Below are positions 10,948 through 30,022 of a stretch of 64,000 nucleotides of DNA, in pieces (positions within the stretch are counted from its first letter, which is position 1; each line of letters opens with the position of its first letter). The notes below the pieces were generated by a model that did no database searches, was not told where the DNA came from, and was given only the letters and a program-made list of their open reading frames with translations. The position numbers were made by a program, and so were the translations under genes. Source of the stretch: Escherichia coli (GTDB lineage Bacteria; Pseudomonadota; Gammaproteobacteria; Enterobacterales; Enterobacteriaceae); NCBI RefSeq assembly GCF_048403405.1, contig NZ_CP183129.1. One strand, written 5' to 3'.

Positions 10948-10976
10948 AAAAAAAACCACCTGGCGGTGGTTTTTTC
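10948..10976. terminator. Bidirectional rho-independent terminator just downstream of Q (tR'-like candidate)
   Basis: AAAAAAAACCACC-TGGC-GGTGGTTTTTT: perfect stem flanked by A-run and T-run. Confidence 0.6.
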
Positions 10977-11036
10977 TTACTTTGCCATCACGTACAAAAT
11001 CGGCAAAATATCAGATTTATACGAAACATACGCGAT

Positions 11037-13146: not shown

Positions 13147-13147
13147 G

Positions 13148-13426
13148 TTACCTCCAGATGCGTTGCTGGAATGTGCGGGACGGACGCGGTGGCCGTTCGG
13201 AGTAAGGGAGCCTGACGGAGATTATCCAGTGACGATAATCGAGGCTGAGGGCTTTCTTAATCTCGTATCCGTGTCTGCGGTAGCACTGAATTAGCCACTC
13301 GGCCTGTTCTTCAGTGCATGGGGGATGCTGGTACCAGTCTGACTTAAATGCATGAGAATACCGCTCGTGCGTGTGGGCAAGAACGGTCGAATTATCATGA
13401 TTGTAATATTTTGCGTTGCGTGCCAT
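13148..13426 (-). CDS. Hypothetical small phage protein (92 aa)
   Basis: ORF in operon orientation, stop abuts next gene start. Confidence 0.5.
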   Translation of the reverse strand: MARNAKYYNHDNSTVLAHTHERYSHAFKSDWYQHPPCTEEQAEWLIQCYRRHGYEIKKALSLDYRHWIISVRLPYSERPPRPSRTFQQRIWR

Positions 13427-13492
13427 CGGTTTTCTCCGGTGGCACGGTGTTACTCAGCGGGAGTTCAGCCCCGCGCAAGATTGTAGATGAGT

Positions 13493-13744
13493 TTATTCTT
13501 CTGAAAAAGCAGAAAAGCCAGCTTTTATTCCGATCTCTTTCAATGCCTGTAATGAAGTGACAAACTCACCGTCGTGCAAGATAAATCCGTCCGTCACTCG
13601 GGCATCCACAAAATTAATTAACGCAGCCCCATTTTTTTGCAAACACACAATGCGGTAATGGCTAACAATATTTCCATTTTCAACGCACACAGCATAGAGG
13701 CCATCTTCACAAAAAATTTTACGCAGTTCTTCGATGTTCATCAT
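13493..13744 (-). CDS. Hypothetical small phage protein (83 aa; same position and size as Qin rem)
   Basis: ORF immediately downstream of hok as rem is in Qin; identity not verified. Confidence 0.5.
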   Translation of the reverse strand: MMNIEELRKIFCEDGLYAVCVENGNIVSHYRIVCLQKNGAALINFVDARVTDGFILHDGEFVTSLQALKEIGIKAGFSAFSEE

Positions 13745-13860
13745 CAGAATCCTTCCGGATAATTAGCTCTCCCCTTTAAGGGACCATCCCTCTTATCCCT
13801 GCGCGCTACTTAAGTATTTTTGATTCTATTCCGGCACCGTCCAGAACTTCAAATGCGTTG

Positions 13861-13892
13861 AAAATAAAAACAAAAACCCGCCGAAGCGGGTT
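13861..13892 (-). terminator. Rho-independent terminator at 3' end of hok mRNA
   Basis: AACCCGC-CGAA-GCGGGTT stem followed by long U-rich run on minus strand. Confidence 0.6.
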
Positions 13893-13960
13893 AAGTGCGG
13901 GTGCGTTGAGGATGCCTGCCACATCAGAGGTGGCGAGGGATTTCTCCCTCGCCTGGTCTC

Positions 13961-14116
13961 TTACTCCTCAGGTTCGTAAGCTGTGAAGACAGCGACCTCC
14001 GTCTGGCCGGTTCGGATTCGTACCTCGCAGAGGTCTTTCCTCGTTACCAGTGCCGTCACTATGACGGTTAAACAGATGACGATCAGGGCGATTAACATCG
14101 CCTTTTGCTGCTTCAT
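13961..14116 (-). CDS. Hok-family type I toxin (51 aa)
   Basis: Below ORF-track length cut-off; my translation MKQQKAMLIALIVICLTVIVTALVTRKDLCEVRIRTGQTEVAVFTAYEPEE is the canonical Hok/HokD sequence. Confidence 0.85.
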   Translation of the reverse strand: MKQQKAMLIALIVICLTVIVTALVTRKDLCEVRIRTGQTEVAVFTAYEPEE

Positions 14117-14129
14117 AGCCTGCTTCTCC

Positions 14130-14235
14130 TTGACCTTTCGGTCCGTAAGAGGCTAATCTCTATGTGTCGCATAGATATGGCCTCAGATTAATGTTAAGCG
14201 TCTTGCAGGACGCGTAATGTTAACTGGGGCTTTTC
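14130..14235 (+). ncRNA. Putative Sok-like antisense RNA with its promoter, antisense to hok leader
   Basis: TTGACC-17/18nt-TAATCT promoter on plus strand overlapping hok translation start; short hairpin GCGUC…GACGC downstream; inferred from hok/sok architecture. Confidence 0.3.
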
Positions 14236-14374
14236 TCTATCTGCCTTTTGGTGTTCATGCCTGAGACAGATAGCCTCAAGCACCCGCAGTTATTCTACTT
14301 AACTAAGATTTCCCCGCAAACCGTTTTTGTCCGGCACAGTAAATATCCAACTAAACCAATGGCGTTCGCTGTAT

Positions 14375-14554
14375 TTACCGCCAGTATTCAATGCACATGA
14401 CCGCCATGAACACCCCTAAAAAAAGGGCATTTATATGTCCAAACATTAATATCAAAACATCAATTTTTTCCATATACCTTGCTGTGAAGATGATGGGCAT
14501 ACATGATGCGAACAACCAGAACGCAACAAACAAAAACTGCAATGCGTTTTTCAT
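14375..14554 (-). CDS. Hypothetical small two-helix membrane protein (59 aa)
   Basis: ATG 14554 after GGGGGAA; MKNALQFLFVAFWLFASCMPIIF…LFLGVFMAVMCIEYWR; AT-rich island between hok and nin genes. Confidence 0.45.
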   Translation of the reverse strand: MKNALQFLFVAFWLFASCMPIIFTARYMEKIDVLILMFGHINALFLGVFMAVMCIEYWR

Positions 14555-14674
14555 TATTCCCCCTACAATCAATGTGCAATAACATTTAAACACACCTCAA
14601 TTTGGCCGGACATATAAATATCTAAACCAGAAAAAATCACTTACATAGCGTTACAAACTCTTTAGTCTAAATAT

Positions 14675-15661
14675 TCATCGTAAAACATCCTCCACGCTTA
14701 TCAGTCCATTTCGTTTCAGGTAATCCATCGCCTTCTCCGGTAATTTGCAGTCCGGCTGAGCTTTTTTCAGTTGACTGACCAGTCGTTTAACCCACATTGT
14801 TAATTCGCTAACCTGGTTACCTAGCGCTGGCGACGCTACTGTCTGTTCCAGAACGTCATCAGGTACTACCGGCTCTACTGCCAACTGACTGGCATATTTG
14901 TTAATGGTAACGATAAGCTCTTGCTCGGCCTCATCCAGACAATCACCGATACCTCGCCTGTCACCGTCAAAATCATCGAAATCGGCGCGAATCCTGGCAA
15001 CCTCCCGGATTGCGGACAACACCTCACCAGGAATTACCGGAGAGTTGCCCGATAGTGCATTCTGCTCCAGTGATGCCTTTACAAACCACGCGGCCTGAAC
15101 TATTACGCCATGAATCCAGCGCAAATCAGCATCGCGATCTTTCTTTTTCATCTTTTCGCCACTTAAAGCCTGGCTTATGTGGCTACGTACAAGGTCTTCA
15201 TGTAACACCTTCGCATCCTCAATGGTGAAACCACCAGGCAGGCGAGCCGGGGTTACATGAGGGTTGCCTTCCCCCTGACTCTGAAGCATGGCGGCGCGGT
15301 AGGCATTCCAGCCTCTCACCTCTGCAATAGCGGCAACATCATCGACCGCGTACATTTTAAGAGGGTTAGGCATTGGTTTTTCTTCAGATACTACTGGCAC
15401 TGGAGGGGCGGCATAAACAGGAATAACGTCCGCTTGCTCTTTATTGCTTTCATCCGTTAAAGCCCAGAATAATTTCCCGGCCGGATGTTTGAAAATATAA
15501 GCAACTGGTTCTGCGCTATCAGCTTCGCGCCGCTTCTGTAGCTCTGCTGCCATTGCGCTCACGACTTCAACTGGTGCCCTTGCAGCAAACTCTATGTTGG
15601 TGATAAGCTCATTAAGATATTGCTCGCTGGGATACTGTTTCTTATTGGTAATAGTGGTCAT
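14675..15661 (-). CDS. Hypothetical phage protein (328 aa) sharing N-terminal module with 16025..16432
   Basis: Long ORF; contains PVYAAPPVPVVSEEK also present in upstream paralogue. Confidence 0.7.
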   Translation of the reverse strand: MTTITNKKQYPSEQYLNELITNIEFAARAPVEVVSAMAAELQKRREADSAEPVAYIFKHPAGKLFWALTDESNKEQADVIPVYAAPPVPVVSEEKPMPNPLKMYAVDDVAAIAEVRGWNAYRAAMLQSQGEGNPHVTPARLPGGFTIEDAKVLHEDLVRSHISQALSGEKMKKKDRDADLRWIHGVIVQAAWFVKASLEQNALSGNSPVIPGEVLSAIREVARIRADFDDFDGDRRGIGDCLDEAEQELIVTINKYASQLAVEPVVPDDVLEQTVASPALGNQVSELTMWVKRLVSQLKKAQPDCKLPEKAMDYLKRNGLISVEDVLR

Positions 15662-16023
15662 GCTGTAGCCCCTTCTTGATATTTTTCAAACCAGAACACA
15701 ACCGGGTCAGATTTCATTTCAACCAATCCCATACGAACCAGCGCTTTGCCTTTCCCGGACGCAAGGAATTCACGACGACCATCACTGATAATTCGCCGAT
15801 AGTCTTCCAGGCTACTGCAATGCTTGTGCAGATTGCATGGGTGGCATGCCGGAACCATGTTGGATATATCGTCACGTTCCTGGTGAAGCATATTTCCATT
15901 AAAACGAATGACCGGTTTTACATGGTCTGCATGCCACTTTTCGCCAAGTTCACAGCCGCAATAAGCACAGCGACCGCCAAACTTCATGCGCAATTCTGCA
16001 CGTTGTTTTTTCGTCAGTGCCAT
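15658..16023 (-). CDS. HNH endonuclease
   Basis: CAYCGCEL…HADHVKPV…N…CHPCNLHK HNH motif; 121 aa. Confidence 0.8.
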   Translation of the reverse strand: MALTKKQRAELRMKFGGRCAYCGCELGEKWHADHVKPVIRFNGNMLHQERDDISNMVPACHPCNLHKHCSSLEDYRRIISDGRREFLASGKGKALVRMGLVEMKSDPVVFWFEKYQEGATA

Positions 16024-16024
16024 A

Positions 16025-16432
16025 TCAGTCTCCTTTGATGCCAGTGTTTACAACCTGGCAGGCCTCTTTGAGCACCCAGTCAACAGCGTCTTTCCATGCT
16101 CCGGTTTCGACTGGCGGATTTTCACGCTTAACCTTTTCATAGAAGCGCACGGCTTTAACCAGTCCTTCAGACACAACCGGCACAGGTGGAGCTGCGAATA
16201 GTGGTTTAGGTGATATCTCCGCACGTTTTGCGTATGCTTCAACTGTGTCAGGATTAAACAGGATTATGTTTTCGCCGCATTTCCACGCTATCGGTTCCGC
16301 TTCTAGCGATGCCAGTGCAATTTTGAATAACTCACCCTCTACCCGTGCCATCCCTGAATTCGTGTGGCATTTCGCAATCGCTATTTTTAATTTGGCTTCT
16401 TCGATTAATTGCTCTTTTGTTAATTCAGTCAT
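16025..16432 (-). CDS. Hypothetical phage protein (135 aa), paralogous N-terminal module
   Basis: Contains PLFAAPPVPVVSEG; stop abuts HNH gene. Confidence 0.65.
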   Translation of the reverse strand: MTELTKEQLIEEAKLKIAIAKCHTNSGMARVEGELFKIALASLEAEPIAWKCGENIILFNPDTVEAYAKRAEISPKPLFAAPPVPVVSEGLVKAVRFYEKVKRENPPVETGAWKDAVDWVLKEACQVVNTGIKGD

Positions 16433-16527
16433 TTTTCATTACCGCCCTTTCGGGCGGCCTCCTGATGTTCTGAGGGTGCAGAAATCCCTCCGGTTAAGGA
16501 TAAAATTTTTAACAGTGCTAAATTTAA

Positions 16528-16884
16528 TTATTCAGTTCTGGATTTTGTCGCCCTGCATATCCGCGCTTTCGCGTTACGCTCAATCTGAATTAACTTTTCT
16601 ATATTTTTCCGCCTTTCCTGTTCCTCCTGGCGCAATAGCCTTACATCATCTGCCAGTCTGGTTTCTCTTTTCGCCACAGAGAGCATCCAGTCAAACGGCT
16701 CCACAACTGCACCGCAGATTTTACAGCGGACCTGACGCTCTTTTTCGTCAACCCGAACAGAGGCGTGATGACAATATGGTCTTTCCGATGACTCATAAAG
16801 AAAATTAACCTGATTACGAGGGTCATCCTCTTTTACCGGAAATAAAACGATATTGCTTAACTCATCCTCTGGTTTTATTTCCAT
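16528..16884 (-). CDS. Hypothetical protein with putative zinc ribbon (118 aa)
   Basis: CHH…CKIC motif followed by charged coiled-coil-like tail. Confidence 0.55.
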   Translation of the reverse strand: MEIKPEDELSNIVLFPVKEDDPRNQVNFLYESSERPYCHHASVRVDEKERQVRCKICGAVVEPFDWMLSVAKRETRLADDVRLLRQEEQERRKNIEKLIQIERNAKARICRATKSRTE

Positions 16885-17323
16885 GCTCCTCTCCTTTGAT
16901 GCGAATGCCAGCGACGCGTAATGCGTGTTCTAGGTCAATCAGGTAAAGCCAACTGCCATTTTCTTTAGGTATCATGACATGTCGCTCATCTGCATTTATC
17001 GGGTGTCCATATCGAAGGTCGTAGCGAGTCGGTAATTGAACTTCCCGCGCTTCCAGTTCAGCAATACGCTTACTCCCATCAGAGATAACGCCTTCGTAAT
17101 ACTCACGCTGCTCGTTGAGTTGTGATTTTGCTTCTTCCAGTCCATCCAGCAAATCAGCGATAATATCCGCTTCCCGATGACGGATGTGACGCTTAAACGC
17201 AGCAAGAGCCGCATCACAATCCCGTTCAGCATTTGGGCTGTCCGGGATAGCCTGATACCACGCCAGCGTCGACTGATAGTTTTGTGCTGCCTCACGAAGC
17301 GCCTCATAGTTAACCTCTCTCAT
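16862..17323 (-). CDS. Hypothetical phage protein (153 aa)
   Basis: ORF overlapping neighbours by a few nt in operon orientation. Confidence 0.55.
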   Translation of the reverse strand: MREVNYEALREAAQNYQSTLAWYQAIPDSPNAERDCDAALAAFKRHIRHREADIIADLLDGLEEAKSQLNEQREYYEGVISDGSKRIAELEAREVQLPTRYDLRYGHPINADERHVMIPKENGSWLYLIDLEHALRVAGIRIKGEEHGNKTRG

Positions 17324-17616
17324 TGAGCCACCTCCTGATAAATCACCGCATGCCCCAGTTTCTCCGCCAGTGCCAGCTCTGCCTTAGCGCCCGCTGACCG
17401 CTGCCAGCCATTCAGCATGTAAATCGCATCCACACAACGAATCATTGCCATGCAAATATCCATGTAGTGCGGCTGTGTCAGCCCGTCCGGAAGTACTGCC
17501 GGGTTTAAGACGGTATGCCCTTCCCGTTTCAGTTCCTCTTCCGCCTTGTGAAACGCCTCACGGTTGAAATTTTCATATCCCGTCATTGGACCGGCAATAT
17601 AAACTCTCACCCTCAC
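17320..17616 (-). CDS. Nucleoside 2-deoxyribosyltransferase-like protein (DUF4406-like)
   Basis: VRVYIAGPMTGYENFN… motif typical of the family; GTG start at 17616 overlapping upstream stop (GTGA); ORF track gives longer 17320..17685. Confidence 0.6.
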   Translation of the reverse strand: MRVRVYIAGPMTGYENFNREAFHKAEEELKREGHTVLNPAVLPDGLTQPHYMDICMAMIRCVDAIYMLNGWQRSAGAKAELALAEKLGHAVIYQEVAQ

Positions 17617-18020
17617 TCCATCACCTCCTGAAAGTTTCCCCGATAGAACGCCAGCACACGCTGCATGACTTCGCTCTGGCGGCACTCACGACAAATTATG
17701 TTCTGCCGTCTGTTGTAACGACGTATTTCTCCGTCAGGTAACTTTCGAATCAGTGTCGGGTCAGCAGCCTTCTCCGGTGTCTTACGCCATACGCGATACG
17801 CCTGCTCTGATGGAAATACCCCGCAACCAGAGAGCCAGACATCACCACTGGCCGCAAGCGCACCAGATAAACGACGAATAGCGGTCTTACTGACACCCGT
17901 TTTATCTGCCAGTTGTCGAAAAGTTTCTCGTCCGCTCAGGCGCACGAATTCCACAATGCGCGCCTTCACTTCTTCCCGCTCTTCTGGTGTAAATACTTTT
18001 GCCATAAGCGCCTCCGGCAA
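17613..18020 (-). CDS. Hypothetical HTH-containing phage protein
   Basis: 135 aa; …QLADKTGVSKTAIRRLSG… HTH-like segment. Confidence 0.55.
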   Translation of the reverse strand: MPEALMAKVFTPEEREEVKARIVEFVRLSGRETFRQLADKTGVSKTAIRRLSGALAASGDVWLSGCGVFPSEQAYRVWRKTPEKAADPTLIRKLPDGEIRRYNRRQNIICRECRQSEVMQRVLAFYRGNFQEVME

Positions 18021-18809
18021 TCACTTTTCCGATACAACACGGCGGGAAGAATCACTAATCTGTCGAACAATATCCCGGTGCTTGTTCAGCTCCCGCAGCG
18101 CGGCGCAGACTCGCTCCCACTTCTGAACATCACTTTTCGCCCTGCGCAGCGCCAGGTTTGCCCTGCGAAGGGACGGAAAAATCAGCTCATCTGCTTGCGT
18201 TTCGGTAAACGATGGCAACGGCTGCACAATGTCCGCCACAGTTTCTGTTTTAATTTCTTCCTGTGTTGCGGCTTCCCGGACTGGTAACGCAGCACCTGCT
18301 GGCTGAGGAAAGGCCTTACCATCACTTTCCGTTACCAGCGCGGCTTTCGGCTCTGCTGGTAAATTATCGCCCGGCATGCAGTAACGAAATTTACCGTTCT
18401 GATTAACGCGTGCCAGCCGCCCCGTTGCGGTTACCACCGCCAGCGTGGAGGCAACCTTGCGAGTACTGACGCCGAACTTACCCGCCAGTTCCTCACACGT
18501 TTTAGCACCATCCTGACCGATAAACTCAATCATCATGTCTGCGGTAACTTTTTGTTCGACCTCCCCGGTCAGCATATCCTGTGCTTCAGATTTTACTGGC
18601 CGCTCTTCGGTTACCCGGGATTCACCTTCGCCAGCCAGAAACCAGGTGTGACCAGTTTTATCAACGACGCCATTTCTTTTGAGTTCCCACAGCTCGTTGA
18701 GAACCTCTTCACGACTGATATCAAGTCGCGCGGCCAGTTCTACCGATGTGGCTTTTCCCATTGCTTTCAGTGCGTCAAATACGGTTTCCATTAAAATTTC
18801 CTCCGACAA
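18021..18809 (-). CDS. Hypothetical protein with two winged-helix-like segments (262 aa)
   Basis: [30 protein letters not shown] and [33 protein letters not shown]. Confidence 0.6.
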
Positions 18810-18824
18810 AATCGTTTCTCAGAT

Positions 18825-19490
18825 TCAAATAAAACCAGCTGCCTTCCGGCGTTCGTATTCCTGTTTCAGCCGTTCAATTGGCGTTGGCCCTTGCGGGTGT
18901 TTCGCCCCTTCCAGTTGTCGTCGCACTGGCGGAACACTCATCCCGTTACCAACATGCTTTGCCCATTTCGTCAGTTGCCGTTCTGCAAGTCGTTTTAACT
19001 CACCCTGCGTCATCTGGCGCTCAATCCCTCTGGTACGCATTTCGAGGCAGATGTGGTACAGCACAGGCTGAGGCCACGGATATTTGTCGCTTCCGTCATA
19101 TCGCCAGGACTCATCACGCCAGCGGCGGTACTCCTCCATCACAGCATCCACCGTCAGGCCAAATGGATTGGCCCCGCTTTCTGAAATCAGCGCCACAAAC
19201 TCAGCCAGGTCCGGAGGCCATGTTTCACCCGCCCGGCAGCGGTCCATGCACTGGCGGCAGACCTGTCGGATTTGCTGCTCAGTCATCGCGCCAATCTGTG
19301 CAATCCAGAGCTTCGAAGGTGCGGCCCCGTTCTTCTGGGTCCAGCGGTTCGAATAAACCTCCCCCATGAGTTCCCACAGCTTCCAGACCGTTTCCGTCGC
19401 TGATAAATCCGTTTTCACGTTCCCACTGCTCACGTGCTGCCCGAATTTCCTGAACTGCCCGTGATGCGGTGCCACCTGGTGCTGCTGCAT
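18825..19490 (-). CDS. Replication protein P-like (helicase loader); start uncertain
   Basis: …WPPDLAEFVAL…KYPWPQP… resembles lambda P; ORF overlaps 3' end of O by about 210 nt; internal starts at 19370 or 19286 possible. Confidence 0.65.
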   Translation of the reverse strand: MQQHQVAPHHGQFRKFGQHVSSGNVKTDLSATETVWKLWELMGEVYSNRWTQKNGAAPSKLWIAQIGAMTEQQIRQVCRQCMDRCRAGETWPPDLAEFVALISESGANPFGLTVDAVMEEYRRWRDESWRYDGSDKYPWPQPVLYHICLEMRTRGIERQMTQGELKRLAERQLTKWAKHVGNGMSVPPVRRQLEGAKHPQGPTPIERLKQEYERRKAAGFI

Positions 19491-20319
19491 GGTTTACCCC
19501 CTTGCTGACTGGTTTAACCTGCGCCCTGACGTGATTTACGTGACGGGCGAATTTCTGCTCCCACTGAATCTGCGTAAACACTTTCCCCTCCGCTGCCCAG
19601 TAGTCCCGGAAGGCGGCAAGTTCAGCAGGTGTAAATTCTGTCTCCGGCAAAGCCATCCCCCACAACGCAGCCCGTCGTCGAAAATCCCGTGACGGATACC
19701 AGCTATCGGTCATCGGAAATTTTCCGATGGGTTCGCTCAGGCCATCCAGGAATACAAGGGGTGCTGCCTGTAACGACAAAACTTCCTGCTCACTGGTCGG
19801 AGCACTCTCGCGTGCGTTATGTGTGGGGTTTAGATCTTTGGGTTCCTTTGGGTTCCGTGATCCGTTTTTGGGTGTCTTTGATGGAAAATTTGGGTGTCTT
19901 TGGTTATTTTCCATGCAGCTAAGAGTTCCGTTTTTGGGTCTGTTTTGTGCTGAAACATAACCATTTTCGGTACTGTTTTTATTAACAGCACCAATTTTAC
20001 CCACCTTTAAAGACTCCCGTTTTTGGGTGTATTCAGGCTCGGCAACACTTTCTTCTACACCGATAAGTCGGTACACCACAATTTGCTTTGTTCTGCCTTT
20101 TCTCTCACCGGTATCAACAATTAACCCAATCTCCATCAGGTGTCGTAAGCTGTCCTGCACAGTCTTTTTGTTCAGTTCCGTTACTTCTGCCAGTGCAGAT
20201 ACAGACGGGTATGCACACAAATCGGCACCGCACATATCAGCAAGCCAGGTCAATACAGACTTACTGGATGAACTGCCGGTTTTCACCTTTTTAGCCCATC
20301 GTAGTGCATCGATACTCAT
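19279..20319 (-). CDS. Replication initiator O-like protein with N-terminal HTH domain
   Basis: ATG 20319 with AGGGGT upstream (MSIDALRWAKK…); iteron repeats inside the gene. Confidence 0.75.
   Translation of the reverse strand: MSIDALRWAKKVKTGSSSSKSVLTWLADMCGADLCAYPSVSALAEVTELNKKTVQDSLRHLMEIGLIVDTGERKGRTKQIVVYRLIGVEESVAEPEYTQKRESLKVGKIGAVNKNSTENGYVSAQNRPKNGTLSCMENNQRHPNFPSKTPKNGSRNPKEPKDLNPTHNARESAPTSEQEVLSLQAAPLVFLDGLSEPIGKFPMTDSWYPSRDFRRRAALWGMALPETEFTPAELAAFRDYWAAEGKVFTQIQWEQKFARHVNHVRAQVKPVSKGVNHAAAPGGTASRAVQEIRAAREQWERENGFISDGNGLEAVGTHGGGLFEPLDPEERGRTFEALDCTDWRDD
19835..20035. repeat. Putative replication origin iterons inside O gene
   Basis: Repeated CCGTTTTTGGGTGT-like units at 19861..19876, 19926..19942, 20016..20032 plus TTTGGGTTCC/TTTGGGTGTC partial copies; adjacent A/T-rich stretch. 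Confidence 0.6.
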
Positions 20320-20842
20320 ACAAACCCCTGGCAGACATTTGTTTATCTGCAAAGTAATATTGATATTGCTGACGATACGCATGCTTGAAAGCAATAGCTT
20401 TTTCTATAAGCTCGTCAGTCTCACGTTCCACAACAGCTGGATCCGCAAAAAGCAGCCCGGACTCCACCACATCGCCATATTCTTTGTTTAATCCGGCGAT
20501 CATGTACGTAATGCTTTTTCCATCACTGATCTCACGATACAACCTGAAATCACTAATTCGGATAGCCTCCATAATTGCCGGAATCAGCGCCGTGAATTTT
20601 TTCCGCTTATCCCTGGTGTCGATAGCTTTCCAGCGTTCGAATATCTTCACCCGGTTAACGCCCAGCGCCCGTTGATCAACCTCGCCATCATTAAACGTGA
20701 CGCGTTGAACATCGATGTTCGGGCGTTCTTTCAGAGCCCAGAATGCTTCCGTGATTAATATCGTCGCTTGCTCCTGTGTCATTCCTGGTCGACATACCCA
20801 GGCATCCAGAGCCTCACAAACCTGTTCAGGGGTGATTTTCAT
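20291..20842 (-). CDS. Early regulatory protein, possibly YdaT-like
   Basis: 183 aa directly downstream of cro-like gene; …KRKKFTALIPAIMEAIR… resembles what I recall of YdaT; low certainty. Confidence 0.5.
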   Translation of the reverse strand: MKITPEQVCEALDAWVCRPGMTQEQATILITEAFWALKERPNIDVQRVTFNDGEVDQRALGVNRVKIFERWKAIDTRDKRKKFTALIPAIMEAIRISDFRLYREISDGKSITYMIAGLNKEYGDVVESGLLFADPAVVERETDELIEKAIAFKHAYRQQYQYYFADKQMSARGLYEYRCTTMG

Positions 20843-21053
20843 TGTTCAACCGCCCCGCCCGCTTTGCCTTACGATATTCGTCATAAACTTTGGGGTCGTA
20901 CTGAAGTTCCCCGCCGGATGCCTCCTGTAGACGCATCGCGCGACCTTCAGGAACCAGTTTCCCCCATGCAGCAACGCTTGCCAGCCTAACTCCTGCGGCA
21001 TTGGCAAGCTTTGTTTTGCTGCCAAAAAACGCTATAGCATCAATTTTCAACAT
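20826..21053 (-). CDS. Cro-like repressor (DicC/YdaS type)
   Basis: 75 aa MLKIDAIAFFGSKTKLANAAGV…; divergent from DicA-like repressor. Confidence 0.75.
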   Translation of the reverse strand: MLKIDAIAFFGSKTKLANAAGVRLASVAAWGKLVPEGRAMRLQEASGGELQYDPKVYDEYRKAKRAGRLNNENHP

Positions 21054-21129
21054 ATCGAACTCCTTAGATTTTCCTAAGGAAACTAGATCGTAGAGAAACC
21101 TAAGTCAAGAAAAATTAGAATTACCTAAT
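21054..21129. promoter_or_regulatory. Divergent immunity promoter/operator region
   Basis: 20-bp element TCCTTAG-ATTTTC-CTAAGGA at 21061..21080 (7-bp inverted repeats) plus further CCTAAG half-site. Confidence 0.6.
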
Positions 21130-21537
21130 ATGAAAAACGAAACCTTCGGTGCTCGCCTCTTATACAGGCGTAAAAAATTAAAACTGTCTCAGGCCGCATT
21201 AGGTAAGCTGGTCAAAGTGGCTCACGTAACAATTTCTCAATGGGAAAGAGATGAAACACAGCCAGCGGGGAAGAGATTATTCGCACTGAGCCAGGCGCTT
21301 CAGTGCTCGCCGACTTGGCTTCTTTTTGGAGATGAAGATAAGCAACCAGGCGAACCGATCCCAGATAATCAGCCAGTTAATCTGACAGAAGATCAAAAAG
21401 AGTTGCTTCAACTGTTCGACGCACTGCCTGAGTCAGAGCAAAAGGCTCTGTTGTCAGAGATGCGTGCTCGAGTTGAGAATTTCAACAAACTTTTTGAAGA
21501 ACTACTCAAAGCTCGCAAAAGAAGCGCAAATAAATAA
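21130..21537 (+). CDS. DicA-like XRE-family repressor (cI analogue)
   Basis: 135 aa; HTH KLSQAALGKLVKVAHVTISQWERDET. Confidence 0.8.
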   Translation: MKNETFGARLLYRRKKLKLSQAALGKLVKVAHVTISQWERDETQPAGKRLFALSQALQCSPTWLLFGDEDKQPGEPIPDNQPVNLTEDQKELLQLFDALPESEQKALLSEMRARVENFNKLFEELLKARKRSANK

Positions 21538-21573
21538 CCCTCCCTTTTTTTTCGCCACTCTCTGTAATAAAAA

Positions 21574-21602
21574 GCACAAACTTTCAAATGCTTGTGTTTT
21601 TT
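21574..21602 (+). terminator. Hairpin plus T-run after repressor gene
   Basis: GCACAA…TTGTGT stem (long loop) followed by TTTTTT. Confidence 0.4.
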
Positions 21603-21637
21603 ACATCAAAAAACTTAGGTTTTTCTACACAAAAAGC

Positions 21638-21667
21638 TTGACCATAATTCTTAGGTTATTCTAAATT
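21638..21667 (+). promoter_or_regulatory. pL-like early promoter with operator half-sites
   Basis: TTGACC-17nt-CTAAAT; CTTAGG at 21613..21618 and 21650..21655 matching operator half-sites of the divergent region. Confidence 0.5.
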
Positions 21668-21743
21668 CTACTCATCAAGACACCGCACGGTGTTCTCAGC
21701 AAACAGTTCCGCTACCCTGGCGTTAAGGGGAAATGAGGTCAGC

Positions 21744-21896
21744 ATGGATACTATCGATCTTGGCAACAACGAATCTCTGGTATGCGGCGTGTTTCCCAAC
21801 CAGGACGGCACGTTTACCGCGATGACGTATACCAGAAGCAAAACGTTTCAAACTGAAGCTGGCGCGCGTCGCTGGTTAACCAGAAACACTGACTGA
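21744..21896 (+). CDS. YdfA-like small protein (DUF1391-like, 50 aa)
   Basis: ATG 21744 after GAGGT; MDTIDLGNNESLVCGVFPNQDGTFTAMTYT…; first gene after DicA-like repressor as in Qin. Confidence 0.65.
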   Translation: MDTIDLGNNESLVCGVFPNQDGTFTAMTYTRSKTFQTEAGARRWLTRNTD

Positions 21897-21907
21897 TGAG
21901 GTTGACG

Positions 21908-22282
21908 ATGGAATTTAAAGATTTACCAGTACCATTCCAGGAAATGGCATCGAATGTGGTTCGCTCTCAACTGGCGACTCTTGACCTGAGTACCGTAGAA
22001 AAAGAAACCATCGATACTATATCCGGTAACGTGCGTCGTGCCTTTATCGGTCTGTACGAAGAGAAGCAGCTCTCTGATAACCAGGATTTACATGAAAAAT
22101 ACTTCCTGGAATTAATGGACATCATTAATAAAGGATTTGGCTTGTTAATGAAAAAGAAAGGGATTCGAATAGCTCCCCTTGAAAATCATTTTACAGCGAG
22201 CAGTATTAATTCCTGTGATTTAAAGCATCACACATCCGATGGGAAAGTTGAATCAAACAACAAAATATCAATTAATCATTAA
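21908..22282 (+). CDS. Hypothetical protein (124 aa)
   Basis: ATG 21908 after GAGG, 11 nt past ydfA-like stop. Confidence 0.5.
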   Translation: MEFKDLPVPFQEMASNVVRSQLATLDLSTVEKETIDTISGNVRRAFIGLYEEKQLSDNQDLHEKYFLELMDIINKGFGLLMKKKGIRIAPLENHFTASSINSCDLKHHTSDGKVESNNKISINH

Positions 22283-22581
22283 TTTATTCACAGGTGAGGT
22301 AGAGTGCGTGCGCCGGACACGGATAAGAATCCGGCACTGACAGTTTACTAAAAAGGATATATCCCTGAAAAGTCAGGGCATAACACGAAAGCGCCCGGCG
22401 AAGTTAGTCTCTCTGTATAGGTCGTCGTTAAATTTAATTCGATCGTGCGCTTCCGGTTGTGGCAATCCGCGAAATGGCGCGGCGGTAAGTATGGCTGGGG
22501 TTTCCTCCATTGCTCCAGAAAATGCACCGGGTTGTCAGGTTGACCATACGCTTAAGTGACAGCCCCGCCACAATACCCATG

Positions 22582-22633
22582 TGTAGTCTTTGGTGGCATC
22601 AGTTCTACTCCGTGACTGCTCTGCCACCCTTTT
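22582..22633 (+). ncRNA. dicF: DicF-like small RNA
   Basis: GGTGGCATCAGTTCTACTCCGTGACTGCTCTGCCACCC + TTTTT closely matches the K-12 DicF sequence as I recall it, with compensating stem changes; sits between ydfA-like genes and dicB. Confidence 0.75.
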
Positions 22634-23109
22634 TAAAGTGAATTTTGTGATGCGGTGAATGCGGCTAAGCGCACGCGGAACAGTTAAAACCAAAAACAGT
22701 GTTATGGGTGGATTCTCTGTATCCGGCGTTAATTGTTAACTGGTTAACGTCACCTGGAGGCACCAGGCACCGCATCAACAAAGTTCACTTCGGTGATGAA
22801 AGGTAAGAGAAAATGTTGAATGTAGCTATTGAAAACCAGAACGGGTGGAATTATAGTGCACCTGCACCTCATAAAACGGGTGCCGGGCGTGGAAACCCGG
22901 AATTCAATCAAGCGCATAACCGCGCTCAGGCGGTTTTTTTATGCGTCAAGCACAGCCACATTCAGATTATGGTGGGGCGTGCAGGGCAGCTGCAAGGCTG
23001 GCCGGATTCTTGGTTGACCGGTATTTCCACCCCTGTACGCCTCACCACCCTTATGGTCGTGGAAAACCTTGGTGGTGAGTTATTAATACTCAACCAAGAG
23101 GCTGCCATT

Positions 23110-23667
23110 ATGGCTACTATCCCTACCCTTTCTCACCCTGACGTAACCATCGAAAATGGTCGCGCTGTCACTACGTCTGTTGCGGTTGCAGAGTTCTTCC
23201 GCAAAATGCACAAGGACGTTCTGCGCAAAATTGAAACGCTAGAATGCTCTGAAGATTTTAACGAGCGCAATTTTACGCCCGTTACCTACACCGACGCCAA
23301 AGGCGAAAAACGCCCCATGTACCAAATCACCAAAAACGGCTTCGTTTTCCTGGTGATGGGGTTCACAGGTAAAAAAGCCGCAACTTTCAAAGAAGCCTAC
23401 ATCGCTGAGTTCGATCGCATGGAGGAAGAACTGCGCCAGAATAACGCCCCGTCTCCCGACAAAATGATTCACGGGGACGGACGCACCCTGGTTATCCGTC
23501 TCGACGAACACGGCAATATCAAATTCACTGAAACCGTTCCTGACGGCGCAATGGTCTGCACCCTGGATACCTTCCGGTTTTATCTGGAGAAACAAGGATG
23601 GACTCTTGTAAACCGGAGCGCAATTAAAAATATGACTGTGGAGCAATTGCTAAAAATTCATTGTTGA
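23110..23667 (+). CDS. Rha-family phage regulatory protein
   Basis: ATG 23110 after AAGAGG; …ENGRAVTTSVAVAEFFRKMHKDVLRKIETL… Rha domain; ORF track extends in frame to 22813 but that part contains a terminator-like hairpin. Confidence 0.8.
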   Translation: MATIPTLSHPDVTIENGRAVTTSVAVAEFFRKMHKDVLRKIETLECSEDFNERNFTPVTYTDAKGEKRPMYQITKNGFVFLVMGFTGKKAATFKEAYIAEFDRMEEELRQNNAPSPDKMIHGDGRTLVIRLDEHGNIKFTETVPDGAMVCTLDTFRFYLEKQGWTLVNRSAIKNMTVEQLLKIHC

Positions 23668-23677
23668 GGACGCGATA

Positions 23678-23866
23678 ATGGAAACGTCACTACCAAACGT
23701 TAATACGTCTGACGGGTGCTTTAATATTGGTGTTCTGCTCAGTAACAGGGATTTCACCGAGGATGCAATCAATATGAGAAAATATGAACCCTACCTGCTG
23801 AATGACAATTCCATACTCTCCAGAATTGCCCTTCTTAAACTCGGTATTTTCGGAGAGTGGCGATGA
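23678..23866 (+). CDS. dicB: Cell-division inhibitor DicB
   Basis: 62 aa METSLPNVNTSDGCFNIGVLLSN…, same length and strong similarity to K-12 DicB. Confidence 0.85.
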   Translation: METSLPNVNTSDGCFNIGVLLSNRDFTEDAINMRKYEPYLLNDNSILSRIALLKLGIFGEWR

Positions 23867-24066
23867 ACACATTATTCGTACTCATTCTGACTGTACATCT
23901 CAATACTGGTGAGTCGCTTGATGCAATCACCGGCATGTACAACTCAATGAAAGAATGCATGGCTGCCGCAGCGGAACAGAAAATTCCCGGCAACTGTTAT
24001 CCGGTCGATAAAGTTATTCACATGGACAATAACGAAATCCCGGCGGGGCTTAAAACAGCACCGTAA
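23857..24066 (+). CDS. YdfD-like small protein
   Basis: …NTLFVLILTVHLNTGE…AAAAEQKIPGNCYPVDKVIH…; directly after dicB as ydfD in Qin. Confidence 0.7.
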   Translation: MAMNTLFVLILTVHLNTGESLDAITGMYNSMKECMAAAAEQKIPGNCYPVDKVIHMDNNEIPAGLKTAP

Positions 24067-24143
24067 TTAATATCCGGTTTCATTTTTATATGCCAGCAAT
24101 GGCAGGGATTTGTTCACCCTTAAATCTGTAATGAGGTTTATCA

Positions 24144-26600
24144 ATGAGCACTGATAAAGAAGAAATTGCACTATATTACGAAGCCAAAAATGACAAAATC
24201 AGAAAACGTCTTGGAATTAAAGGCGGTTTTTACTGGCGCACAGCAAAAAAATTATCGGTTGCAATATCACGCGGTGTTGTCGCAATGGACGATGCCGGAT
24301 TTGACAAAGAGGATTTTAAAAAACCTGTTCGCGTCCATTTACCCGTTGTGAATGACCTTCCTCCGGAAGGCGTGTTTGATACCGAATTCTGCAACCGATA
24401 CGAAAAGGGCGGTGAAGATGGTATCACAATGGTACTTATCGCGCCCTCGCCCTCTGTTCAGGATAAACCAGCCAGCACTGACAATACCAACGTCAACGGC
24501 GAAGACATGGCTGAGATTGAGGAGAACATGCTCCTGCCGGTTTCAGGTCAGATTCTGCCTGTTCGATGGCTGGCACAGCACGGCAGCGAAAAACCGATCA
24601 CACACGTTTCGCGGGACGAACTGCGCACATTACATAACGCACAGGATGAAAAACTTCCCGCCGTTACCGCGCTGGCCATCTCAAATAAAGCAGCGCAACT
24701 CGAACCGCTGGAAATTCGCGATCTCCACAAACTGGTTCGTGACACGGACAAAGTTTTCCCTAATCCTGGTAATTCAGACCTGGGACTGATGACTGCTTTT
24801 TTCGAAGCATACCTGGGCGCTGACTACACCGATCGCGGTCTGCTGACAAAAGAGTGGATGAAAGGAAATCGTGTTTCACGCATCACCCGCACGGCTTCCG
24901 GTGCTAATGCCGGTGGAGGGAACAAAACCGATCGCAATCCGAATTTAGTACACACCTTCGATACGCTGGATGTGGAGATTGCAGCGGCCACACTTCCGAT
25001 GGATTTTAATATTTATGAAATTCCGGGCAGCGTTTATCGTCGCGCAAAAGAAGTCGTCCGGAAGAAAGAAAGTCCGTTCAAAGAATGGTCCGCAGCACTT
25101 CGCGCAATCCCGGGTATCCTGGATTATTCCCGCGCCGCTATTTTTGCACTTATCCGAAGCGCACACCCTGAATTTTATCACTACCCGGGACGCCTTCAGG
25201 GGTATATCAACGCCTATTTGACGGAAACTGATCACGAGAACCCTACCGAGGAAACTCTCGCTGCTGCACGACATACACCGGAAAAAGATATCCTGGAAGA
25301 AGTTAACCGCGAACTGGCTGCTGAACGCGAAACAGAAGAAGAAAAAAATAATGAGGAAAAATCACAACCGTCTGACGCAATGGCAGATGAACAGGCAACG
25401 ACTGAAGCAATGGAGCCGAATACAACTGAACATCGCCAGGACACGCAATCGCTGGATACTCAGGCACAGATAGATCCGGTTAATCAGGTAAAAGTTACCG
25501 CTGACGAAGTAAACAAAATTATGCAGGCAGCCAATATCAGCCAGCCTGACGCCGATAAGTTGCTTGCGGCCTCTCGCGGAGAATTTGTTGCAGGGATTAG
25601 CGACCCGAATGATCCGAAATGGGTCAAGGGGATGGAAACCCGCGATTCTGTGAACCAGAACCAGCAAGAAACGGAACAGAACGGCCAGAAAGCGGAACAA
25701 AACAGCCCAAATGCGTTACAAAACGAGCCAGAAACGAAACAACCTGAACCAGTAGTGCAACAGGAACCGGAAAAGATCTGCACCGCCTGCGGTCAGACCG
25801 GCGGCGGCAACTGCCCTGATTGTGGCGCGGTGATGGGCGACGCAACATACCAGGAAACATTCAATGAAGAGAATCAGGTTGAAGTTCAGGAAAATGATCC
25901 GGAGGAAATGGAAGGCACTGAACATCCACACAAGGAGAACCCTGGCGGCAATCAGCATCACGATAGCGATAGTGAAACTGGCGAGGCGACAGATCACTCA
26001 GTTAAGGTGAACGGTCATCATAAAGGCACATCCACCAGCGGGACGTGTGACCATCTAATGATCGACCTTGAAACCATGGGAAAAAATCCAGATGCCCCGA
26101 TTATCTCAATAGGTGCAATATTTTTCGATCCGCAAACCGGAGATATGGGACCGGAATTTAGTAAGACTATCGATCTGGAAACTGCTGGCGGAGTCATTGA
26201 TCGGGACACCATTAAATGGTGGCTTAAGCAATCACGCGAAGCGCAATCTGCCATTATGACCGATGAAATCCCGTTAGATGATGCACTGTTACAATTGCGG
26301 GAATTTATCGACGAAAACTCCGGCGAATTTTTTGTTCAGGTCTGGGGAAATGGAGCCAACTTCGACAACACGATTTTGCGCCGTTCATACGAACGGCAGG
26401 GGATCCCCTGCCCGTGGCGTTACTACAACGATCGCGATGTACGCACAATCGTTGAGCTGGGGAAAGCCATAGACTTCGATGCCAGAACGGCTATTCCATT
26501 CGAAGGTGAGCGCCATAATGCACTTGATGACGCCCGTTACCAGGCAAAATACGTTTCAGTTATCTGGCAAAAACTGATCCCGAGTCAGGCTGATTTTTAA
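24144..26600 (+). CDS. Large phage exonuclease: N-terminal domain, acidic/Gln-rich linker, C4 zinc ribbon, C-terminal DEDDh 3'-5' exonuclease domain
   Basis: 818 aa; MIDLETMG (Exo I), WGNGANFDNTIL (Exo II), HNALDDARYQAKY (Exo III); CTACGQTGGGNCPDCG ribbon; same position as the 'exodeoxyribonuclease VIII' genes of lambdoid prophages. Confidence 0.8.
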   Translation: MSTDKEEIALYYEAKNDKIRKRLGIKGGFYWRTAKKLSVAISRGVVAMDDAGFDKEDFKKPVRVHLPVVNDLPPEGVFDTEFCNRYEKGGEDGITMVLIAPSPSVQDKPASTDNTNVNGEDMAEIEENMLLPVSGQILPVRWLAQHGSEKPITHVSRDELRTLHNAQDEKLPAVTALAISNKAAQLEPLEIRDLHKLVRDTDKVFPNPGNSDLGLMTAFFEAYLGADYTDRGLLTKEWMKGNRVSRITRTASGANAGGGNKTDRNPNLVHTFDTLDVEIAAATLPMDFNIYEIPGSVYRRAKEVVRKKESPFKEWSAALRAIPGILDYSRAAIFALIRSAHPEFYHYPGRLQGYINAYLTETDHENPTEETLAAARHTPEKDILEEVNRELAAERETEEEKNNEEKSQPSDAMADEQATTEAMEPNTTEHRQDTQSLDTQAQIDPVNQVKVTADEVNKIMQAANISQPDADKLLAASRGEFVAGISDPNDPKWVKGMETRDSVNQNQQETEQNGQKAEQNSPNALQNEPETKQPEPVVQQEPEKICTACGQTGGGNCPDCGAVMGDATYQETFNEENQVEVQENDPEEMEGTEHPHKENPGGNQHHDSDSETGEATDHSVKVNGHHKGTSTSGTCDHLMIDLETMGKNPDAPIISIGAIFFDPQTGDMGPEFSKTIDLETAGGVIDRDTIKWWLKQSREAQSAIMTDEIPLDDALLQLREFIDENSGEFFVQVWGNGANFDNTILRRSYERQGIPCPWRYYNDRDVRTIVELGKAIDFDARTAIPFEGERHNALDDARYQAKYVSVIWQKLIPSQADF

Positions 26601-26661
26601 TGTTCAACCGTCGCCAGTTGTCGTTGATATTCTGCAACTGGCGCGTTCCGGAGTGATAGCC

Positions 26662-26931
26662 ATGAGCGAACAGTACCTGATAACGCTCGACGAGTGGAAA
26701 CCAAAACGGTTCAGTCTCCCAATAACAAACACTACCCTGGTGAAATACGGAAAACTAGGATACATCGTTCCAAGACCACAAAAAATTCGTGGGCGTTGGC
26801 TGATAGATCGCCGAGCAGTATTTGTTGGGCCTGGTGAAACGGGAATTGCGCCGGAAATTCATACTGGCGATGATGATGCACTGAAGGAGATTTTAACTCA
26901 TGTCACCGAGGCCACGAAAAAACAGCACTGA
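26662..26931 (+). CDS. xis: Excisionase (putative)
   Basis: Small ORF immediately upstream of and overlapping int by about 30 nt; ATG 26662 chosen over GTG 26653. Confidence 0.6.
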   Translation: MSEQYLITLDEWKPKRFSLPITNTTLVKYGKLGYIVPRPQKIRGRWLIDRRAVFVGPGETGIAPEIHTGDDDALKEILTHVTEATKKQH

Positions 26932-28018
26932 CGTAGCCGGTCTTTACGAAAAGTTTGATCGCAGAACTGGCAGAGTTTACTACCAGTATAAAAATCCTGT
27001 GACTGGAAAATTTCACGGACTCGGAACAGACAAAGGTAAGGCAGAAAAAATCGCTTCCACAGCCAATCAGCGAATAGCTGCAGCAGAAGCTGAATATTTC
27101 ATGCGCAAAATTGATGAAAGTCCGTCAGCAACAAAACGTCGGGGTATCAGATTAAAGGCATGGGTTGATCGATATCTGAAAATACAGGACACGCGACTGA
27201 AAAATGGAGATATTGCAGCTACAACTCACAAAGAAAAAACTCGAATGGCTGCATACCTGGTTTCCCGTCTGGGAAACCACCCATTGAAAGAACTGGAAGT
27301 AAGAGACTTTGCATTAATACTGGATGAGTGGCTGGATAAAGACATGGTCAGCACAGCGAGAGTAAATCGTGGATTATGGGTTGATATTTATAAAGAAGCA
27401 CAGCATGCAGGGGAAGTTCCTCCTGGATGGAATCCTCCGGAGGCTACCCGTAAACCGATCCCTAAAGTAACCAGAGCCAGGCTCACCATGGAAGACTGGC
27501 AAAAAATTTACAATGCAACGCCTGAAAAACACTTTATCCGTAACGCAATGCTTCTTGCGATTGTTACTGGTCAGCGCCGTGATGACATTTGCCACATGCG
27601 TTTTTCAGATGTGTGGAACGAACACTTGCATATCACCCAGGGAAAAACCGGAATGCGTCTGGCGTTACCGCTTACACTACGCTGTGATGCCATTGGGATA
27701 ACGTTAAAAGAAGTTATTGATGGGTGCCGAGACAGAATATTAAGTCCATATCTAATCCATAGTCGGCACCAGAAACAACCGAAGCCGATGAGTAAAGACA
27801 ACCTGAGCGACTACTTTGCCAAAGCACGGGATCTGGCTGGGATAATTCCACCAGCAGGAAAAACTCCGCCAACATTTCATGAACAACGCTCTCTATCAGA
27901 ACGGCTGTACCGTGCACAGGGTATCGATACAAAAACATTACTAGGACATAAAGTCCAGGCAACCACCGATCGCTATAACGATACTCGAGGTCAGGAATGG
28001 GTTAAGTTGGTTATTTGA
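26900..28018 (+). CDS. int: Tyrosine integrase (lambda Int family)
   Basis: 372 aa; C-terminal HEQRSLSERLY…LLGHK…RYNDTRGQEW resembles lambda Int catalytic region. Confidence 0.9.
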   Translation: MSPRPRKNSTDVAGLYEKFDRRTGRVYYQYKNPVTGKFHGLGTDKGKAEKIASTANQRIAAAEAEYFMRKIDESPSATKRRGIRLKAWVDRYLKIQDTRLKNGDIAATTHKEKTRMAAYLVSRLGNHPLKELEVRDFALILDEWLDKDMVSTARVNRGLWVDIYKEAQHAGEVPPGWNPPEATRKPIPKVTRARLTMEDWQKIYNATPEKHFIRNAMLLAIVTGQRRDDICHMRFSDVWNEHLHITQGKTGMRLALPLTLRCDAIGITLKEVIDGCRDRILSPYLIHSRHQKQPKPMSKDNLSDYFAKARDLAGIIPPAGKTPPTFHEQRSLSERLYRAQGIDTKTLLGHKVQATTDRYNDTRGQEWVKLVI

Positions 28019-28068
28019 CAAACACCATATGGAATATCCGTCACCATCTCAGGAAAAAAGTGTTGTAA

Positions 28069-28188
28069 AATGCGTGGCCTAGTTTTGGGGAAACGTTTTG
28101 GAGAGATTTTGGAGAAAGGAAAAAATTGAATAAATTCAAAATCCTGAAAGTGCTCCACCTTATGAATAAGAAGGTGGAACTCGAATGA
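28069..28188 (+). other. Attachment junction (attR-like) carrying a phage-supplied 3' end of potB
   Basis: Frame ending …KILKVLHLMNKKVELE-TGA with stop overlapping potC ATG (ATGA); last residues NKKVELE equal native PotB C-terminus as I recall it. Confidence 0.6.
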
Positions 28189-28979
28189 TCGGTCGACTGC
28201 TTCGCGGCGGTTTTATGACCGCTATCTACGCGTACCTGTATATTCCAATCATTATTTTGATTGTGAACTCGTTCAACAGCTCGCGCTTTGGCATCAACTG
28301 GCAGGGTTTTACCACTAAATGGTATAGCCTGCTGATGAACAACGACAGTCTGTTGCAGGCAGCTCAGCATTCATTGACGATGGCGGTGTTTTCAGCGACG
28401 TTTGCTACGCTTATCGGTTCACTGACTGCAGTTGCGCTGTACCGTTATCGCTTTCGCGGTAAACCGTTCGTTAGCGGAATGCTGTTCGTGGTGATGATGT
28501 CGCCAGATATTGTGATGGCGATTTCGCTGCTGGTGCTGTTTATGCTGCTGGGTATTCAGCTTGGCTTCTGGTCGCTGCTGTTCTCGCATATCACCTTCTG
28601 CCTGCCATTTGTGGTGGTGACAGTGTATTCGCGCCTGAAAGGTTTTGACGTGCGAATGCTGGAAGCGGCGAAAGATCTCGGTGCCAGCGAATTTACCATT
28701 CTGCGAAAAATCATTCTGCCACTGGCAATGCCAGCGGTAGCGGCGGGCTGGGTGTTAAGCTTTACCCTGTCGATGGACGATGTAGTAGTTTCTTCGTTCG
28801 TCACCGGACCAAGCTATGAAATTCTGCCGTTAAAAATTTATTCGATGGTCAAAGTCGGCGTATCGCCGGAAGTTAACGCGCTGGCAACCATATTACTGGT
28901 GCTGTCGCTGGTGATGGTAATTGCCAGCCAGCTTATTGCTCGTGATAAAACGAAAGGTAACACAGGGGACGTTAAATGA
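28185..28979 (+). CDS. potC: Spermidine/putrescine ABC transporter permease PotC
   Basis: 264 aa, full-length. Confidence 0.95.
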   Translation: MIGRLLRGGFMTAIYAYLYIPIIILIVNSFNSSRFGINWQGFTTKWYSLLMNNDSLLQAAQHSLTMAVFSATFATLIGSLTAVALYRYRFRGKPFVSGMLFVVMMSPDIVMAISLLVLFMLLGIQLGFWSLLFSHITFCLPFVVVTVYSRLKGFDVRMLEAAKDLGASEFTILRKIILPLAMPAVAAGWVLSFTLSMDDVVVSSFVTGPSYEILPLKIYSMVKVGVSPEVNALATILLVLSLVMVIASQLIARDKTKGNTGDVK

Positions 28980-30022
28980 AAAAATGGTCACGCCACCTGC
29001 TCGCGGCGGGTGCTCTGGCACTGGGCATGAGCGCCGCTCACGCCGATGACAACAACACGCTGTATTTCTACAACTGGACCGAGTACGTGCCGCCAGGACT
29101 GCTTGAGCAGTTCACCAAAGAAACCGGTATTAAGGTTATCTATTCGACTTACGAGTCGAACGAAACCATGTACGCGAAGCTGAAAACGTACAAAGACGGT
29201 GCCTATGACCTGGTGGTTCCTTCAACCTATTACGTCGATAAAATGCGTAAAGAAGGGATGATCCAGAAGATCGACAAGTCGAAGTTAAGCAACTTCAGCA
29301 ACCTCGATCCAGACATGCTCAACAAGCCGTTTGACCCGAATAACGACTACTCCATTCCGTATATCTGGGGGGCGACGGCGATTGGCGTTAACGGTGATGC
29401 GGTAGATCCGAAATCCGTTACCAGCTGGGCCGATCTGTGGAAGCCTGAGTACAAAGGCAGCCTGCTGCTGACCGACGATGCCCGTGAAGTGTTCCAGATG
29501 GCGCTGCGCAAACTGGGCTACTCCGGTAACACTACCGATCCGAAAGAGATTGAAGCTGCATATAACGAGTTGAAAAAACTGATGCCAAACGTCGCGGCGT
29601 TTAACTCCGATAACCCCGCTAACCCGTATATGGAAGGCGAAGTTAACCTCGGCATGATCTGGAACGGTTCTGCTTTCGTTGCACGCCAGGCGGGTACGCC
29701 AATTGATGTGGTGTGGCCGAAAGAAGGCGGCATTTTCTGGATGGACAGCCTGGCGATCCCGGCAAATGCCAAAAACAAAGAAGGCGCGCTGAAATTGATC
29801 AACTTCCTGCTGCGCCCGGATGTGGCAAAACAGGTTGCAGAAACTATCGGTTATCCAACGCCAAACCTTGCGGCGCGTAAGCTGTTAAGTCCGGAAGTGG
29901 CGAACGATAAAACGCTCTACCCGGATGCTGAAACCATTAAAAATGGTGAATGGCAGAATGACGTTGGCGCAGCCAGCAGCATTTATGAAGAGTATTATCA
30001 GAAGCTGAAAGCAGGACGTTAA
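28976..30022 (+). CDS. potD: Spermidine/putrescine periplasmic binding protein PotD
   Basis: 348 aa with signal peptide. Confidence 0.95.
   Translation: MKKWSRHLLAAGALALGMSAAHADDNNTLYFYNWTEYVPPGLLEQFTKETGIKVIYSTYESNETMYAKLKTYKDGAYDLVVPSTYYVDKMRKEGMIQKIDKSKLSNFSNLDPDMLNKPFDPNNDYSIPYIWGATAIGVNGDAVDPKSVTSWADLWKPEYKGSLLLTDDAREVFQMALRKLGYSGNTTDPKEIEAAYNELKKLMPNVAAFNSDNPANPYMEGEVNLGMIWNGSAFVARQAGTPIDVVWPKEGGIFWMDSLAIPANAKNKEGALKLINFLLRPDVAKQVAETIGYPTPNLAARKLLSPEVANDKTLYPDAETIKNGEWQNDVGAASSIYEEYYQKLKAGR

Follow-up and report, generated by a model that had tools for sequence, protein, structure and literature searches.

Integrase-proximal attachment junction of a lambda-like prophage in the last codons of potB in Escherichia coli

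The int-potC segment and its open frame

We analyzed a stretch of 64,000 nucleotides of Escherichia coli DNA (RefSeq assembly GCF_048403405.1, contig NZ_CP183129.1), referred to here as the window, in which a lambdoid prophage is followed by potC and potD. The prophage genes in the window comprise portal/terminase, lysis, Q, replication, immunity, recE-like exonuclease, xis and int genes. The features of the region are listed below.

1..28176, no strand: the portion of the lambdoid prophage within the window, based on the annotation of E. coli MS 69-1 and the identity of the window to it
26662..26931, + strand: excisionase gene (xis), overlapping the int start; annotated as excisionase, PF07825 (Exc) at E = 7e-5 and 23.2 bits (cut-off 23)
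26900..28018, + strand: lambda-family tyrosine integrase gene (int), 372 aa; PF09003 3.8e-21 (residues 1-64), PF00589 1.5e-18
28019..28162, no strand: int-proximal attP arm, non-coding phage DNA; colinear with IMG/VR contigs L016 and L017, without homology in the prophage-free locus
28082..28115, + strand: three tandem direct repeats (G)TTTTGGRGA starting at 28083, 28096 and 28107, candidate arm-type Int sites by sequence
28154..28178, no strand: 8-bp inverted repeat, TCCACCTT (28154-28161) and AAGGTGGA (28171-28178) around ATGAATAAG, from the sequence
28163-28176, no strand: 14-bp att core, int-side direct-repeat copy TGAATAAGAAGGTG; the sole block common to both junctions, attB and attP
28163..28188, + strand: orphaned native potB 3' end (..TG AAT AAG AAG GTG GAA CTC GAA TGA), identical to K-12 potB-potC
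28185..28979, + strand: potC, intact; WP_000580316.1, the same accession as in K-12
28976..30022, + strand: potD, from the annotation

The integrase aligned with lambda Int over its full length (35% identity, E = 5e-61) and resembles it in possessing an arm-binding domain and all six catalytic residues, where R226, K249, H327, R330, H350 and Y359 align to lambda R212, K235, H308, R311, H333 and Y342, respectively. The overlap of xis with the int start is likewise lambda-like. Both empty and occupied potB sites are present among E. coli genomes.

Other genes of the prophage were also noted. The 818-aa 'exonuclease' encoded at 24144-26600 (+) carries an N-terminal Exonuc_VIII (RecE) domain (PF06630, 1.9e-27) and a C-terminal PF16473 domain (1.3e-67), the latter being an Rv2179c-like DEDD 3'-5' exoribonuclease domain, and this combination departs from the classical RecE architecture. 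Host-interacting morons at 9922-10257 (+), 13961-14116 (-) and 22699-23866 (+) include an IraM-like anti-adapter, hokD, and partial and full dicB flanking a Rha-family regulator. A second iraM is located in the chromosome near icd, at 12819-13142 of the MS 69-1 locus (L003).

When window 28000-28188 was translated in the potB frame, the product read G-stop-VGYLTNTIWNIRHHLRKKVL-stop-NAWPSFGETFWRDFGERKKLNKFKILKVLHLMNKKVELE-stop. Within 28018-28190, the open frame is limited upstream by TAA 28066-28068 and ends in ...KILKVLHLMNKKVELE, and its stop TGA (28186-28188) overlaps the potC ATG (28185-28187), as an earlier note made from the sequence alone had observed. Native PotB of K-12 ends in ...YWRASRLLNKKVELE. 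Comparing the two, the last seven residues (NKKVELE) are equal and the eighth differs (M against L), in agreement with the observation of that note that the native PotB end is preceded by differing residues.

Core, junctions and attachment arms

To locate the boundary between phage and bacterial DNA, window 27900-28500 was searched by megablast against 5426 complete E. coli genomes. Prophage-free genomes, including K-12 derivatives, matched only from query position 264, which corresponds to window 28163. In the alignment with potB-potC of K-12 XL1-Blue, identity was unbroken from 28163 (TGAATAAGAAGGTGGAACTCGAATGATCGG...) and no similarity was seen to the left. With 28163 as the exact start of nucleotide identity to the prophage-free locus, the seven-residue match to PotB is real and not due to chance. 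Native identity comprises the last 23 nt before the potC ATG, or 26 nt counting the ATGA overlap, rather than the whole 120 nt of the potB 3' end that the earlier note had considered; the junction therefore really lies at 28163. The 26-nt fragment is cut off from the potB body, as int lies directly upstream and the sole annotated potB is that at the far junction.

The far junction was located in E. coli MS 69-1 (NZ_CP146675.1), which showed 0 mismatches to the window in the compared stretches of 1221 nt and 3601 nt, with window position 1 corresponding to record position 3067780. The MS 69-1 prophage measures 48,454 bp from core start to core start, continues about 20.3 kb past the window start and splits potAB from potCD. 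There, potA and potB lie 48.45 kb upstream, and genes for tail fibre, tail and head come directly after them and lead into the window start. The second core copy, which forms the direct repeat expected in the earlier note, is at L003 27489-27502 (record 3047488-3047501), about 20.3 kb to the left of the window, and the potB-side junction reads ...CGCTTGCTGAATAAGAAGGTGAGCGAATTAGATGATTAATCC....

When the potB-side junction was aligned with K-12 attB and with the int-side junction, only TGAATAAGAAGGTG was shared by the three sequences. Prophage-free genomes equal the potB-side junction exactly up to the last core base, and their BLAST boundaries coincide exactly with both core ends. The core, which occurs once within the window, spans the potB codons from L278 (last 2 nt) to V282 of 285 and ends 8 nt 5' of the potC ATG. 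The placement of a prophage in the 3' end of potB, with its attachment core adjoining the potB/potC overlap, is thus borne out by both junctions. A core of about 14-15 bp duplicated at both junctions is also shared with lambda.

The attP sequence predicted from the two junctions, i.e., the int-side arm, the core and the tail-side arm, was present as a contiguous sequence equal to the prediction in three IMG/VR contigs found by an exact-pattern scan. In L016, the order is int (372 aa), an arm as in window 28019-28162, the core and the tail-side arm of MS 69-1, and L017 is arranged alike. These contigs possibly derive from tandem prophages and not from free phage, and the attP sequence is valid in either case. 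Recombination of the two junctions would give attB (potB-potC) as ...CTGAATAAGAAGGTGGAACTC... and attP as ...CTTATGAATAAGAAGGTGAGCGAA.... With all four sequences aligned, attP is tiled by the two MS 69-1 junctions, whose overlap is the 14-bp core alone; this settles the core and identifies 28019-28162 as DNA of the phage attP arm. In the GenBank phage collection, a near search returned just two 'phage' records, which are prophage cut-outs containing potC and potD, and a distant search with a synthetic attP returned no record across the core.

The int-proximal arm is conserved from about 28055 on, even where cargo is inserted after int. In E. coli 2013C-4538 (L008 1097-2000), the int stop and the conserved arm are separated by about 1 kb of cargo, inserted at a point between window 28018 and about 28055, and homology resumes near 28055, which bounds the conserved arm. 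Two proteins are encoded by the cargo in the opposite orientation, one a DUF2335 protein and the other small and hypothetical, and the cargo represents a moron slot inside the att region.

Within the arm, the GTTTTGGRGA repeats lie 47-80 nt from the core, and the arm also has an A/T-rich spacer. The other arm has a fourth TTTTGGRGA copy, at L003 27619 and 117 nt away from the core, which is kept in all variants despite diverged flanks. The arrangement of three tandem candidate arm-type repeats in the int-proximal arm and a further copy in the other arm would resemble lambda P'1-P'3. The inverted repeat TCCACCTT/AAGGTGGA provides candidate core-type Int sites around the strand-exchange region, and its left arm is CCGCCTT in most other copies. 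One-mismatch matches to the IHF consensus were found twice in the tail-side arm and not in the int-side arm. Compared with lambda, the core and arm sequences are different, and the potB attB lies inside the coding sequence of an operon, whereas that of lambda is intergenic between gal and bio.

The tail-side arm of MS 69-1 contains further elements. At L003 27489-27533, the core TGAATAAGAAGG is accompanied 21 nt downstream by an imperfect inverted copy, CCTTTATATTCA, which is kept in every variant and coincides in part with a match to the IHF consensus with one mismatch (27529-27541). A G+C-rich hairpin of 13 bp (CCTCCCCGACTAT/ATGGTCGGGGAGG) follows the potB stop at a distance of about 190 nt (L003 27686-27715) and is also kept in the IMG/VR attP contigs; as it has no T-run, it was not called by the terminator scan. 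The same hairpin occurs in phage cdtI (AB285204; L006 2500-2660), where a half core (AGAAGGTG), AGCGTATTAGATGATTAATCC and the distal part of a potB-type tail-side arm lie beside cdtA. The cdtI site is a relic of a potB-type attP half-site in another lambdoid phage, adjoining toxin cargo.

Taken all together, 28018-28190 is the integrase-proximal junction of a lambda-like prophage, at which attP and attB were recombined by Int in the last potB codons through a shared 14-bp core, and we assign this reading a probability of roughly 0.92. As the course of events, the prophage would have entered the chromosome by Int-mediated site-specific recombination of attP and attB inside the last potB codons. 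Integration split potABCD so that potA and the potB body remained at the far, tail-fibre end, where phage DNA to the right of the core supplies PotB with five codons and a stop. At the int end, the last seven native potB codons, the stop and the overlapping potC start stayed bacterial and are now preceded by attP arm DNA.

The open frame and the altered PotB terminus

The open frame is a non-coding int-proximal attP arm that is read in the potB frame into the orphaned last seven native codons. Its length of 39 codons was equalled in 10.7% of shuffles of the phage part (P ~0.11) and is therefore unremarkable. The complete list of in-frame starts consists of TTG 28126, GTG 28150, ATG 28162, which was created by the junction, and GTG 28174, and the 28018-28190 frame lacks an ATG start preceded by a convincing ribosome-binding site. 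Among sequence variants of the arm, LH to SR were the sole substitutions seen in this frame and are non-synonymous, so there is no sign of coding constraint.

Nevertheless, a short leader ORF could be truly translated and could restore translational coupling into potC, for example by opening a TCCACCUU/AAGGUGGA hairpin over the Shine-Dalgarno sequence. Candidates for such a leader would start at TTG 28126 (20 codons, with AAAGGA 6 nt upstream), GTG 28150 (12 codons) or ATG 28162 (8 codons). RNA folding of both sequence variants predicted an 8-bp hairpin over the potC Shine-Dalgarno sequence, and the A-to-G change in its left arm keeps G-U pairing. However, the z-scores of the folds (-0.85 and -1.0) were insignificant, and neither the length of the frame nor its substitutions favor translation. 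Moreover, the sequences in question are accounted for as candidate arm-type and core-type Int sites, such that an explanation at the DNA level suffices, and potC has its own native Shine-Dalgarno-like AAGGTGG at 28171-28177. As such, we consider a translated leader very unlikely.

The earlier note had regarded the frame as a phage-encoded replacement C-terminus by which potB is completed at this junction. The frame does run into native PotB residues and the native ATGA overlap, but int ends at 28018 directly upstream of it, with no potB body there, and the frame is closed by the TAA at 28066-28068. In the annotation of MS 69-1, which matches the window, potB has a stop of its own and lies at the other junction, at a distance of 48 kb. 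In addition, the seven matching codons are bacterial and not of phage origin, so that hardly any weight can be given to a replacement terminus in this frame. The same holds for the restored coupling context of potC proposed in that note: judged by the alignment, the Shine-Dalgarno sequence and the ATGA overlap are retained bacterial DNA. A decayed remnant or rearrangement, in which int and debris deleted the potB end without site-specific integration, would fit the degraded state of some potB-site prophages (e.g., frameshifted structural genes in O157:H7 86-24), but is next to impossible given that MS 69-1 has a full lambdoid gene set and two precise junctions with a 14-bp direct repeat that sum exactly to attP with no loss of potB.

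A phage-encoded PotB C-terminus does exist, although at the potB-side junction outside the window. In MS 69-1, the phage gives AGC GAA TTA GAT GAT TAA, i.e., five codons and a stop, and PotB ends in ...LLNKKV-SELDD (287 aa; potB of 864 nt), compared with ...LLNKKV-ELE in K-12 (285 aa; 858 nt). Three native residues are thereby swapped for five; PotB of MS 69-1 is changed from residue 283 onward and otherwise differs from that of K-12 only by the polymorphism Y84F. The altered residues form the extreme end of the RASRLLNKKV... tail, and the last strongly hydrophobic 19-residue window of PotB is 252-270 (mean Kyte-Doolittle 2.06). In other occupied genomes the tail is NELDD, SEIDD or ATEIDN, with five or six substituted residues and the stop at the same codon (287 aa). 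We also considered the phage tail codons (AGCGAATTAGATGATTAA) as a degenerate native potB end, which was rejected because 1174 of 2000 shuffles scored equally. Since only the last residues, beyond the final hydrophobic segment, are changed, a full-length PotB is called by PGAP and about 26% of complete genomes have the junction, PotB-SELDD probably stays functional.

In O157:H7 86-24 (L014 49352-49385; 945-975 on the minus strand), the two core copies differ, reading TGAATAAGAAGG|CAACAG on the potB side and TGAATAAAAAGG|TGGAAC on the int side. This AAG/AAA core polymorphism would tentatively place the exchange, or the resolution of a heteroduplex, in the right half of the core, and the G/A difference may mark where the strand-exchange region ends or may stem from a heteroduplex.

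Related prophages and expression of potCD

The whole int-potC segment was found in at least 1395 of the 5426 complete E. coli genomes (~26%), and in a large share of E. coli, O157:H7 and CFT073-type strains among them, potAB and potCD are set apart by a prophage of about 48 kb. Sakai Sp6 and EDL933 CP-933N are presumably potB-locus prophages as well. Prophages at this locus have been described as PP_potB in O157:H7 clade 8 (PMC9997748), in O145:H28 (PMC7067040) and as phi-CFT073-potB in UPEC CFT073 (PMC4632033). The potB-locus prophages are alike in site, in the int-potC junction (96-100% identical), in the xis-int module and in a rac-like/lambdoid backbone, and differ in mosaic cargo and backbone. 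The O157 version of 86-24 carries nleL/espN/espK, its identity block is just 12 bp instead of 14 and its PotB ends in ATEIDN instead of SELDD, while the int-potC junction is the same.

Phage-supplied gene ends are familiar from e14 and phage 21, the textbook cases that integrate in icd with a substitute gene end. Rac in ttcA is another intragenic prophage with a substitute gene end (PMC4632033). The potB prophage is analogous to these in that attB lies in coding sequence and the phage supplies in-frame codons and a stop, giving a full-length ORF. In contrast with the icd and ttcA prophages, the exchange at potB replaces three residues by five without significant homology to the native end, and the insertion also severs an operon into potAB and potCD. 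In the open-access literature, we found no paper that gives the 14-bp core or the SELDD tail explicitly, and a search of the available literature returned no account, at the nucleotide level, of the att site in potB or of how potCD is expressed in lysogens. The potB site and the phage-supplied gene terminus are already known, and the 14-bp core and SELDD add detail to an element of a known kind.

Int, xis and the upstream early genes lie on the same strand as potC. Scanning the segment between int and potC revealed no terminator-like site on the + strand and no sigma-70-like promoter, and the promoter/terminator scan after potB at the far junction gave nothing relevant. An Rfam scan of 26500-29000 gave no match at E <= 1. 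Based on the lack of a terminator-like site between int and potC, potCD, which is cut off from the potA promoter, would be transcribed by read-through from the int-directed phage strand as the simplest source. The int-directed operon would, however, be mostly shut off by repression in lysogens of the lambda type, which weighs against this source. The TCCACCTT of the arm is anti-Shine-Dalgarno-like and would pair in RNA with AAGGTGGA of potC. An extended proposal, in which about one in four E. coli genomes would rely on phage read-out of int across the junction to express potCD and the TCCACCTT/AAGGTGGA pairing and a leader gate PotC translation, seems very unlikely to us; if it were true, polyamine uptake would be tied to the prophage state. 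For the annotation of intragenic prophage junctions the logic is corrected by the arrangement at potB, in that the native-looking gene end is an orphaned bacterial fragment, while the substitute end supplied by the phage is found at the opposite junction.
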